4,536 nt of DNA from a virus (Duplodnaviria; Heunggongvirae; Uroviricota; Caudoviricetes): IMG/VR virus record IMGVR_UViG_2706794662_000008. One strand, 5' to 3'. Position numbers and translations under genes: made by a program. The notes below the pieces were generated by a model. That model saw only the letters and a list, made by a program, of their open reading frames with translations. It had not been told where the DNA came from and did no database searches. This document shows positions 1 through 4,536 of the stretch, piece after piece. Numbering within the stretch: the first letter of the stretch is position 1; each line of letters starts with the position of its first letter.

Positions 1-125
1 TGAGGCAGCACCTGGCACGGCTGGGACGGAAGTCGCTGTCGTTCTCAAAATCGGTGGAGCTGCATGACAAAGTCATCGGGCATTATCTGAACATAAAACA
101 CTATCAATAAGTTGGAGTCATTACC
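1..125. repeat. Left arm of a perfect 125-bp inverted repeat; partner is 4412-4536
   Basis: Reverse complement of 1-125 matches 4412-4536 base for base when compared by hand. Identity breaks at 126 versus 4411. The arm is GC-rich in its outer ~60 bp and AT-rich in its inner ~45 bp. Confidence 0.95.
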
Positions 126-507
126 CGTTAAAACATCTGCAGATAATGACGTTGACTTGGATACAGATGGATTCAGACAACTGAGGATATCGTGCCCATC
201 CCCTTCTGCCAGCGGTGCGATTATATTGAGAAAAGCTTCTTATGAATTCGGCAAAAGTATAGGTGTATTTGATTTTGCAAACAATGCATCACCAGCGACG
301 ATGACATTTTTGATCCCAATATATAAAGATGATGATTTTGATTCAGATACTGTTGGTTTTACATTTGCGTTCAAGATGCCAAGAGGCCAGTTTTTTGTAG
401 ATGTAAAAGAAAACGGGAATATCAGAGCTGGAGTTAATGTTAATGGCGAGTCGGGAGTGACCTACGAAAATTGCAAATTGAATATGAAAGATATTAATGA
501 TGATTAA
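112..507 (+). CDS. Hypothetical protein, AT-rich small ORF (131 codons from TTG); start uncertain; possible moron or 3' fragment of a larger gene
   Basis: Open frame from 97 to the TAA at 505-507. It is much more AT-rich than the rest of the window (about one third G+C in 301-420 by hand count, against about 50-65% in sampled stretches of N). The track start is TTG at 112 inside the repeat arm, with no clear Shine-Dalgarno; the first in-frame ATG is at 301. An intrinsic terminator follows directly. The C-terminal part is Gly/Asn/Val-rich and looks beta-rich, but I recognise no family. Confidence 0.4.
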   Translation: MESLPVKTSADNDVDLDTDGFRQLRISCPSPSASGAIILRKASYEFGKSIGVFDFANNASPATMTFLIPIYKDDDFDSDTVGFTFAFKMPRGQFFVDVKENGNIRAGVNVNGESGVTYENCKLNMKDINDD

Positions 508-515
508 TATATAAG

Positions 516-539
516 CCGCCAGAAATTGGCGGTTTTTTT
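516..539 (+). terminator. Rho-independent terminator downstream of the AT-rich ORF
   Basis: Stem ccgcca (516-521) pairs with tggcgg (527-532) around a 5-nt loop gaaat, followed by a run of seven T (533-539). It lies 9 nt after the stop codon. Confidence 0.7.
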
Positions 540-544
540 ATAGT

Positions 545-548
545 GGAG
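545..548 (+). promoter_or_regulatory. Shine-Dalgarno (GGAG) for the N-like gene
   Basis: GGAG sits 5 nt upstream of the ATG at 554. Confidence 0.5.
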
Positions 549-553
549 ACAGT

Positions 554-1945: not shown

Positions 1946-3018
1946 ATGATACCGTTTTACTTCGGGTTTCCGGTCGCGAATGGGGCGGCTGGACATCCGT
2001 CCGTATCAGTGCGGGCATTAACCGTATTGCCCGGGATTTTAATGTTGCCATTACCACCCGCTGGCCCGGAAGCCGGGATTATCAACCCCGGATAAAAAAT
2101 GGTGAGCTGGTTGAAGTGCTTATCGGGGATGAGCCTGTGCTCACCGGATATGTGGAGGCACTACCGCTTCGTTATGACGCCAGCAGCGTCAGCATGGGAA
2201 TTGTCGGGCGAAGCAAAACAGCCGATCTGGTTGACTGCTCTGCTTTGCCACTCCAGCAGAGCGGAAAAAACCTGCTCAGAATAGTCAGTGAACTGGCTGC
2301 GCCATTTGGCATCACCGTTGTTGATGCTGGCGTGCCGCAGACAGCGGTGATTGATGCCCAGCCGGAACACGGCGAAACCGTTGCCGATTGTCTTAACCGG
2401 TTACTGGGGCAGGTTCAGACGCTGGCTTATGACGATGAATGCGGGCGACTGGTTCTGGGAAAACCCGGAACAGGTAAAGCGGCGACGGCGCTGGTGCTGG
2501 GAGAGAATATTCTTTCCTGTGACACGGAAAGAAGCATCAGAGAGCGGTTTTCTGAATATCAGGTCAGTGGGCAGCGCCCGGGCAACGACGATGATTTTGG
2601 TGAGGCCACCATTGCCGCAATACGTCAGACCATTCAGGACAGTGGCGTGACCCGTTATCGCCCTTTGTTGATTCAGCAGTCAGGCACAGCAACGACAGCA
2701 ACCTGTAAGGCCCGTTGTGAATTTGAAGCGCGCCAACGGGCTGCGCTTACCCGTGAGACAACATATACGGTTCAGGGCTGGCGGCAGGGCAGTGGCGCGT
2801 TATGGCGTCCGGGGTTATCTGTCATCGTTTTCGACCCGCTGAATAATTTTGATAATGATGAACTGGTGATCGCAGAAGTTACCTATAACCAGGACGACCG
2901 GGGCACGACGACTGAATTACGGGTTGGCCCGGCAGATGCTTATCTCCCCGAGCCTGTTACCGCCAGGAAGAAAAAAATGTTGAGGAGGATTTCTGATGAA
3001 CGGGTTTTCTCTTCGTAA
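1942..3018 (+). CDS. Phage baseplate hub / tail protein (Mu P gp44-like, P2 gpD-like)
   Basis: 358-aa ORF coupled to N by an ATGA overlap. Size and position match Mu gp44. Its 3' end overlaps the start of the next gene by 23 nt. Confidence 0.75.
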   Translation: MNDTVLLRVSGREWGGWTSVRISAGINRIARDFNVAITTRWPGSRDYQPRIKNGELVEVLIGDEPVLTGYVEALPLRYDASSVSMGIVGRSKTADLVDCSALPLQQSGKNLLRIVSELAAPFGITVVDAGVPQTAVIDAQPEHGETVADCLNRLLGQVQTLAYDDECGRLVLGKPGTGKAATALVLGENILSCDTERSIRERFSEYQVSGQRPGNDDDFGEATIAAIRQTIQDSGVTRYRPLLIQQSGTATTATCKARCEFEARQRAALTRETTYTVQGWRQGSGALWRPGLSVIVFDPLNNFDNDELVIAEVTYNQDDRGTTTELRVGPADAYLPEPVTARKKKMLRRISDERVFSS

Positions 3019-3326
3019 TCTGATTTCCCGGGCTGTCATCACGGCGGTGGATTCCGCCAGAAAGTGTCAGTCTGTAGGGTTGAAAATGATAGCCGGAGAT
3101 CAGAAACAACACGTTGAGCACCTTGAACCTTATGGTTTTACATCTGCCGCACAGAACGGTGCTGAGGGCGTTGCTTTATTTCCGGCGGGCGATCGTTCTC
3201 ATGGTGTGGTTGTGGTCGTGGCTGACAGACGTTACCGGCTGAAAGGACTGAAACGTGGGGAAGTGGCGCTTTATGACGATCTGGGACAGTCCGTTGTCCT
3301 GACCCGTTCCGGTATTGTGGTGGACG
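2996..3326 (+). CDS. Baseplate spike / assembly protein V-like (Mu Q gp45-like), 3' end lost in the N-run
   Basis: ATG at 2996. The N-terminal sequence (VITAVDSARKCQSVGLKMIAGDQKQHVEHLEPYGFTSAAQNGAEGVALFPAGDRSHGVVVVV) fits the gpV-type spike N-domain pattern. The ORF runs into the N-run at 3327, so the true 3' end is unknown. Confidence 0.75.
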
Positions 3327-3456
3327 NNNNNNNNNNNNNNNNNNNNNNNNNNNNNNNNNNNNNNNNNNNNNNNNNNNNNNNNNNNNNNNNNNNNNNNNNN
3401 NNNNNNNNNNNNNNNNNNNNNNNNNNNNNNNNNNNNNNNNNNNNNNNNNNNNNNNN
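3327..3456. other. Run of 130 N (assembly gap or masked sequence)
   Basis: Read directly from the sequence. 130 is not a multiple of 3, so reading frames across it carry no information. Confidence 0.99.
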
Positions 3457-3825
3457 TCGATCGACCTTCTGACGCGTGCTGTGATTATTTCGCTTTTTAC
3501 ATGGCGGCGTGCCGGGCGTGATGATGCACCACGGATATTTGGATGGTGGGGGGATACCTGGCCTGCGGTTCAGAATGATCGCACGGGGTCGCGTTTGTAT
3601 CTGTTGCGACGCAGCAAGCTGACAAATAAAACCCCGCAGCTTGCCAGAGATTATGTCCGTGAGGCGCTGGCGTGGATGGTGGAGGATGGTGTTGCTTCCC
3701 GTCTTGATATTAACGCTGTCCGGACCGGGACAGACTCGCTGGCACTTGCCATTACCATTTACCAGCGTGACGGCAATATTCACAACATTATTTTTGATGA
3801 TATCTGGAGTGAACTGAATGGCTGA
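3457..3825 (+). CDS. Baseplate wedge protein, GPW/gp25-like (Mu gp46-like), 5' end probably inside the N-run
   Basis: The frame is open from the gap edge to the TGA at 3823-3825. The first in-frame start after the gap is GTG at 3481, with no Shine-Dalgarno. Size and position between the spike and J-like genes fit Mu gp46. Its stop overlaps the gp47 start. Confidence 0.6.
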   Translation, partial: SIDLLTRAVIISLFTWRRAGRDDAPRIFGWWGDTWPAVQNDRTGSRLYLLRRSKLTNKTPQLARDYVREALAWMVEDGVASRLDINAVRTGTDSLALAITIYQRDGNIHNIIFDDIWSELNG

Positions 3826-4492
3826 CAGTCAGTTTTATCGCCCCGGCCTCCCGCAACTTATTTCTATGATCCGGAGCGATTTATTAACCCGCTTTGAGCA
3901 GGATACGCTGCTTCGTCGTATGGATGCGGAAGTGTATGCCCGTGTACAGGCTGCAGCCGTACACACGTTGTACGGGTATATCGATTATCTTGCCAGAAAT
4001 CTGTTACCGGACGTGTGTGATGAAGACTGGCTGTACCGGCACGCCAGAATCAAACGCTGCCCGCGAAAAGAAGCGGTGGCAGCCCGGGGATTTGTGCGCT
4101 GGGATGGCGTAGAGGGGACGCCGGTATTGCCAGCGGGAACGCAGATCCAGCGTGATAATCAGGTGACCTTTACCACGACGGCGACGGTGACCGCAGCCGA
4201 TGGTCTTCTCCGGGTGCCTGTTGTGGCAGACGAACCGGGATCGGCGGGGAATACGGATGATGGTATTGCCATGCAACTGGGAACACCCGTCAGTGGTCTG
4301 CCGTCCACAGGGTACGCTGACACCATTACAGACGGTGAAGATATTGAAAATCTGGAAATATGGCGTGCCCGCGTTATGGAACGTTATTACTACATTCCAC
4401 AGGGGGGCGCAGGTAATGACTCCAACTTATTGATAGTGTTTTATGTTCAGATAATGCCCGATGACTTTGTCATGCAGCTCCACCGATTTTGA
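3818..4492 (+). CDS. Baseplate J-like protein (Mu gp47-like), apparently truncated or fused: the last 26 codons and the stop lie inside the right repeat arm
   Basis: ATG at 3818 overlaps the gp46 stop. The first ~198 codons are in GC-rich unique sequence. From 4412 the ORF continues in the repeat ([26 protein letters not shown]). At 224 aa it is shorter than the roughly 300 aa or more I recall for J-like baseplate proteins. Confidence 0.7.
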
Positions 4493-4536
4493 GAACGACA
4501 GCGACTTCCGTCCCAGCCGTGCCAGGTGCTGCCTCA
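4412..4536. repeat. Right arm of the perfect 125-bp inverted repeat; partner is 1-125
   Basis: Exact reverse complement of 1-125. It contains the 3' end and stop of the gp47-like ORF. Confidence 0.95.

Follow-up and report, generated by a model that had tools for sequence, protein, structure and literature searches.

The 4,536-nt stretch of DNA analyzed here (hereafter, the window) is the Caudoviricetes record IMGVR_UViG_2706794662_000008 of the IMG/VR database, and both of its ends are formed by the same 125 bp in inverted orientation. With high confidence, we attribute this repeat to two copies of the insertion sequence (IS) IS1, inserted in opposite orientations into a decaying prophage, and to a contig that stops inside each copy; the window itself would be a complete contig or scaffold assembled from short reads of a 53G-type Shigella sonnei genome. 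Under this explanation, the unique core (126-4411) would be part of the tail/baseplate module of a defective phiP27-like prophage beside smpB/ssrA. Two independent IS1 transpositions, opposite in orientation, would have struck this module. The left one interrupts a small, functionally uncharacterized gene that sits between the tape-measure and DNA circularization genes, and the right one interrupts the gene for baseplate J/gp47 at codon 198; each event would have produced its own 9-bp target duplication.

Terminal repeats are the right ends of two IS1 copies

A repeat search of the window bore out the exact inverted repeat reported in an earlier note on this DNA. The two arms (1-125 and 4412-4536) are 125 nt long, 100% complementary, and separated by 4,286 nt. 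The runner-up inverted pair in the window is merely 19 nt long at 84%; thus, chance is not at issue for the 125-bp repeat.

The IS1 identity of the arms was demonstrated with both protein and nucleotide comparisons. The left arm is made up of the C-terminal 35 codons of InsB (3-107), a stop codon (108-110), and the 23-bp right terminal inverted repeat (IRR; 103-125). Its translation matched the Pfam family PF03400 (DDE_Tnp_IS1) with an E value of 1.1e-15 over profile positions 97 to 131 of 131, and the 125-bp arm is 100% identical to sequences annotated as "IS1-like element IS1A/IS1B family transposase." A search of 5,426 complete Escherichia coli genomes located the arm 71,725 times, in 4,963 of them (median, 10 places per genome). 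On the right, the IRR reads GGTAATGACTCCAACTTATTGAT at 4412-4434, a string that exact search confirmed in related loci. The imperfect 23-bp terminal repeats of IS1, the IRR and the left terminal inverted repeat (IRL), were both found as exact strings in these loci. The arms carry the IRR only, with the IRL lying outside the window. Each arm is the last 125 bp of one IS1 copy, and the right (IRR) ends of the two copies point inward at each other. The earlier claim that the window lacks a recombinase is incorrect in this detail, as each arm encodes the last 35 residues of the IS1 transposase (PF03400).

Complete IS1 copies and target duplications in assembled chromosomes

Ten S. sonnei chromosome loci (L003 to L012; contigs of 0.68-4.99 Mb) were retrieved by the exact read-through protein that runs from gp47 into the right IS1 (gp47::IS1; 3818-4489). 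One of these, L006, is accession HE616528.1, which is S. sonnei 53G according to a published strain table (PMC5447701). In L006, the left arm extends into a 768-bp IS1 at 5421-6188 (+), and the right arm extends into a 768-bp IS1 at 10595-11362 (-). These copies lie in opposite orientations and are identical over 768 bp (0 mismatches), with IRL and IRR strings 768 bp apart in both. In all ten loci, both copies are 767-768 bp long, with the members of a pair differing by 0-1 base or by a 1-bp difference in length. According to the gene tables, these full copies encode InsA (zinc ribbon/HTH; PF03811/PF12759) and InsB (DDE domain; PF03400), and insA and insB are annotated on both sides of the interior. 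In biological terms, then, the inverted repeat is the complete IS1 of 768 bp.

The target duplications are paired by individual IS1 copies. In 10/10 loci, a matched 9-bp pair brackets the left IS1 (CGTTAAAAC/CGTTAAAAC) and a different matched pair brackets the right IS1 (GGGGGCGCA/GGGGGCGCA). Each 9-mer is single copy at the corresponding empty site in E. coli FDAARGOS_944 (L001), which carries the same prophage at 99.2% identity, has neither IS1, and retains intact versions of the two genes that the insertions split in S. sonnei. In the ten loci, the tape-measure gene and the 5' part of the small gene lie upstream of the left IS1, and a C-terminal fragment of gp47 (PF26079), gp48, and tail-fiber genes follow downstream of the right one. 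All of these are on the same strand as the interior, which is collinear with the intact prophage in every one of the ten chromosomes. The insertions are two independent, simple IS1 transpositions into a prophage that is already decaying.

A 200-bp query over the right gp47/IS1 junction gave no match at ≥80% coverage in a search confined to E. coli (5,426 complete genomes with their plasmids), and the exact 36-nt gp47/IS1 junction had 0 matches in a collection of genome contigs. The lack of an E. coli match for the right junction indicates that the insertions are not common to E. coli proper. Compared with simple insertions of IS1 (IS1A/IS1B type, 768 bp) in Shigella, the arms of the window are 100% identical, the related finished genomes show the same insA/insB, IRL/IRR, and 9-bp duplications, and nothing of substance differs; the window holds 125 bp per copy as the contig ends there. 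Disruption of prophage genes by such insertions matches the IS-mediated decay described for Shigella (PMC7373316).

The same layout could also be read as a composite transposon, in which the 4.3-kb baseplate segment and its inverted IS1 pair form a Tn1681/Tn9-type unit that was inserted, or can move, as a whole. The two transposons differ in that Tn9 has direct IS1 copies and Tn1681 inverted copies, and inverted IS1 pairs are known to mobilize intervening DNA, as in Tn1681. Formally, the layout fits, with two full, identical IS1 copies bracketing the segment and their IRL ends outermost, and the window resembles Tn1681 in having two inverted IS1 copies around a few kilobases of unrelated DNA. 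However, the duplications differ between the two IS1 copies, with CGTTAAAAC on the outer left and GGGGGCGCA on the outer right, so the outer flanks are not one duplicated target. Moreover, the interior is continuous and collinear with the prophage, the halves of both split genes lie on either side of each IS1, the gp47/IS1 junction is absent at any location in the 5,426 complete E. coli genomes, and the ten loci share one chromosomal context. Unlike in Tn9 and Tn1681, the IS1 pair here formed in place by two insertions, with no sign of moving as a unit. A composite transposon is refuted as the origin of the structure, and a unit of this type, whether inserted or movable, is exceedingly unlikely. 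Among the three readings in the earlier note, the ends of a mobile or composite element came closest. The arms are indeed mobile-element ends, but each represents the IRR end of a different IS1 copy, and together they are not the two termini of one element; as each copy has its own 9-bp duplication, the segment was not brought in by composite transposition.

Flipping of the interior was also weighed, whether through a site-specific invertase of the Gin/Cin/Pin/Hin type or through homologous recombination involving the two inverted IS1 copies. Identical 768-bp inverted repeats spaced 4.3 kb apart should, in principle, be a substrate for RecA-dependent inversion, and IS-flanked inversions are documented elsewhere in S. 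sonnei, one of them containing this prophage region (PMC12795559). A programmed invertible segment had been raised earlier as a possibility, although not the favored one, by reference to Mu G (Gin), P1 C (Cin), and e14 P (Pin). The likeness lies in an inverted repeat bracketing tail-related genes in a Mu-type tail module. These systems have short crossover sites in tail-fiber genes and an adjacent serine invertase, whereas the repeats here are entire transposable elements around baseplate cargo, with no nearby invertase and with a single orientation seen.

Indeed, no resolvase/invertase-type Pfam family was present in the gene tables of the ten loci within 10 kb on either side, which list IS transposases and phage structural genes, with a tyrosine integrase ∼7 kb downstream in L008 only. 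The arms are transposon ends, not short crossover sites in tail-fiber genes. An inversion between the copies would, moreover, break up the paired duplications, yet these are matched in all ten chromosomes, and the enclosed genes belong to an already broken prophage, in which switching would have no evident function. A second orientation of the interior was not seen among the ten assembled chromosomes, although assemblies cannot show minority orientations within a culture. Given IS1 arms, the lack of an invertase-type family within 10 kb, and collinearity in 10/10 chromosomes, the programmed segment does not hold, and we give virtually no credence to flipping by either route. It is very unlikely, and supported by no observation, that the IS1 pair may occasionally flip the 4.3-kb segment in a subpopulation or mobilize it as a Tn1681-like transposon.

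Source of the window and apparent length of the repeat

The window is 100% identical to S. sonnei 53G (L006) at every non-N base, both arms included. At position 1661, a single base is shared with 53G and differs from the nine other S. sonnei loci, which is consistent with a 53G-like strain as the probable source of the window. The presence of an N run, to which the earlier note does not refer, marks the window as a scaffold from a draft assembly. These 130 N replace 250 bp of 53G (L006 9390-9639), with the flanks aligning to 9389 and from 9640. Replacing 130 N by 250 bp in the spacing of 4,286 nt yields the 4,406 bp that separate the two IS1 copies in L006. The missing stretch covers the last part of gp45 and the first part of gp46, has a GC content of 53%, and is without obvious repeat. 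A length-preserving mask was rejected as an explanation for the run owing to the disparity between 130 N and 250 bp; the run is a scaffold gap of estimated size, 120 bp too short.

The figure of 125 bp has no biological meaning, because the repeat cuts the insB frame mid-codon and coincides with the ends of the sequence. IS1 occurs in many identical copies in Shigella, and short-read assembly cannot cross such a repeat. On the most economical reading, a contig would then enter the same IS1 end on both sides by a fixed distance (125 bases) and stop, leaving a perfect terminal inverted repeat. Of all insertion sequences, IS1 contributes most to the IS insertion sites of Shigella (PMC7373316), and Shigella genomes contain many high-copy repeats of ∼1 kb that are tied to insertion sequences and have caused hybrid-assembly errors (PMC5481147). 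We infer that 125 reflects the k-mer or overlap length of the assembler; the largest SPAdes k-mer is 127 (PMC5481147). Among 226 index blocks with the gp47::IS1 fusion protein, the longest contig carrying it was only 2-5 kb in 186, a size in keeping with assembly breaks at each of the two IS1 copies.

This effect of assembly differs from an amplification or assembly artifact in which the genome holds one real copy and the other is a fold-back chimera. A perfect repeat located exactly at both sequence ends, in a record that is a draft scaffold with an N gap, could point to such a chimera. Against this, ten chromosome-scale assemblies from different projects contain both full IS1 copies with their target duplications, and the arm belongs to a well-known repeat, whereas a fold-back would have copied unique sequence from the locus. 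The earlier note had reasoned that a single copy of the 125-bp sequence, with gp47 continuing uninterrupted, would expose the repeat as an artifact. In the finished genomes, gp47 is interrupted by IS1. A fold-back chimera is thus next to impossible, and only the truncation to 125 bp is an effect of assembly.

Some points limit the explanation by two IS1 insertions truncated at the contig ends. The outer flanks lie beyond the window, such that the duplications and orientation were seen in finished genomes that match it exactly or almost exactly and not in the genome from which it came. The provenance assigned to the window is a probable one, resting on its 100% identity to S. sonnei 53G. None of the assemblers that could be documented here has a default overlap of 125, which leaves a k-mer or overlap setting as a putative cause of this exact number.

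Interior genes and prophage context

Features of the window are collected in Table 1. In the intact state, the small gene at the left end occupies L001 5900-6382 and is annotated as "hypothetical protein." The gene had no Pfam match, matched PHROG 5586 (function unknown) with an E value of 9.7e-89, and has a GC content of 34-37%. It lies between the tape-measure and DNA circularization genes, and the hairpin and T run that follow it look like a terminator. Overall, the gene resembles a moron-type insertion within the module of tail genes. Here, it is inactivated by the left IS1, to which it has lost its 5' end.

Table 1. Features of the 4,536-nt window
Feature	Position	Strand	Basis or remark
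Right end of left IS1 (IS1 positions 644-768)	1-125	+	PF03400; IS1A/IS1B matches; full copy in L006
Inner target-duplication copy of left IS1, CGTTAAAAC	126-134		9-mer also immediately outside left IS1 in 10/10 loci
Small gene of unknown function, 3' part (intact, 160 codons)	126-507	+	5' end lost to left IS1
Hairpin CCGCCAGAAATTGGCGG followed by T run	516-540	+	Read directly from the sequence
DNA circularization protein (Mu gp43-like), intact	554-1945	+	PF07157 (DNA_circ_N), E = 3e-36; RefSeq annotation
Baseplate hub protein (Mu gp44/GpP-like), intact	1942-3018	+	PF21683, PF22255, PF22630, PF21929
Baseplate assembly protein V (Mu gp45-like), N-terminal 110 codons, running into gap	2996-3326	+	PF06890 (Phage_Mu_Gp45), E = 7.6e-27
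Scaffold gap, 130 N	3327-3456		Alignment to L006
GP46 family protein, C-terminal part; start codon within gap	3457-3825	+	PF07409 (GP46), E = 1.4e-31
Baseplate J/gp47, first 198 codons, cut by right IS1	3818-4411	+	PF04865 (Baseplate_J), profile positions 2-134 of 255
Inner target-duplication copy of right IS1, GGGGGCGCA	4403-4411		9-mer also immediately beyond right IS1 in 10/10 loci
Right end of right IS1, last 125 bp	4412-4536	-	Exact reverse complement of 1-125; IRR at 4412-4434

The two genes that meet the scaffold gap are complete in 53G, where gp45 encodes 177 amino acids (L006 9059-9592) and the gp46 counterpart lies at L006 9598-10008. The intact gp47 gene is 1,083 bp long (L001 9817-10899); in the assembled chromosomes, it is interrupted and resumes after the 768 bp of IS1 and the 9-bp duplication. 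The truncated gp47 frame in the window runs 27 codons into IS1, to position 4492, to form a chimeric open reading frame (ORF) of 224 amino acids. This gp47::IS1 ORF has been called as a gene, with a Baseplate_J Pfam match, in the 226 index blocks of public assemblies.

Within the gp44-like gene, an in-frame hexanucleotide repeat (CTGGTG; window 2490-2501) varies among the loci. Two copies are present in the window, L006, and L008, three in L003, and four in 6 of the 7 other S. sonnei loci (L004 has extra indels). The corresponding gp44 products are 358, 360, or 362 amino acids long, and the repeat constitutes a small variable-number tandem repeat in a baseplate gene.

The closest named phage is the Stx2e-converting phage phiP27, to which window positions 550-3326 (the circularization, hub, and baseplate assembly genes) are 96.5% identical. 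phiP27 has no IS1 insertions and is without the low-GC small gene of window 126-507, whereas in S. sonnei the prophage is reduced to a remnant that several insertion sequences have disrupted. In addition to IS1, the gene tables for the ten loci list IS3-family and IS4-family elements in the prophage locus. In E. coli FDAARGOS_944, the tail-sheath gene of the prophage is split by ISEc60 (IS4-like), with a frameshifted ipaH effector gene situated just downstream (L001 781-1971 and 15275-16410). ISEc60 and ipaH suggest a background like that of Shigella or enteroinvasive E. coli, with parallel IS-mediated decay.

The context downstream of the IS4 copy, at about 19.5-20.7 kb, differs among the ten loci. 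bamE and an SMC/recN-like gene are located there in L006, a second, integrase-bearing prophage in L008, and an IS3-family element in L011; raiA and pheA occupy this place in all other loci. An IS4-flanked inversion of the smpB-ssrA-prophage region has been listed for S. sonnei lineages (PMC12795559), and the variation in context fits this inversion.

Significance

The finding is one of known biology and has little biological weight, as both IS1 expansion and IS-mediated prophage decay are already well documented in Shigella. In practical terms, when a short contig begins and ends exactly with a perfect inverted or direct repeat, this betrays a multicopy IS that truncated a short-read assembly, and the apparent length of such a repeat reflects the assembler rather than biology. 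The calling of the gp47::IS1 read-through ORF as a gene across many assemblies is a minor annotation artifact. If the flipping or mobilization judged very unlikely above were true, it would constitute a small, recurrent structural polymorphism in S. sonnei.

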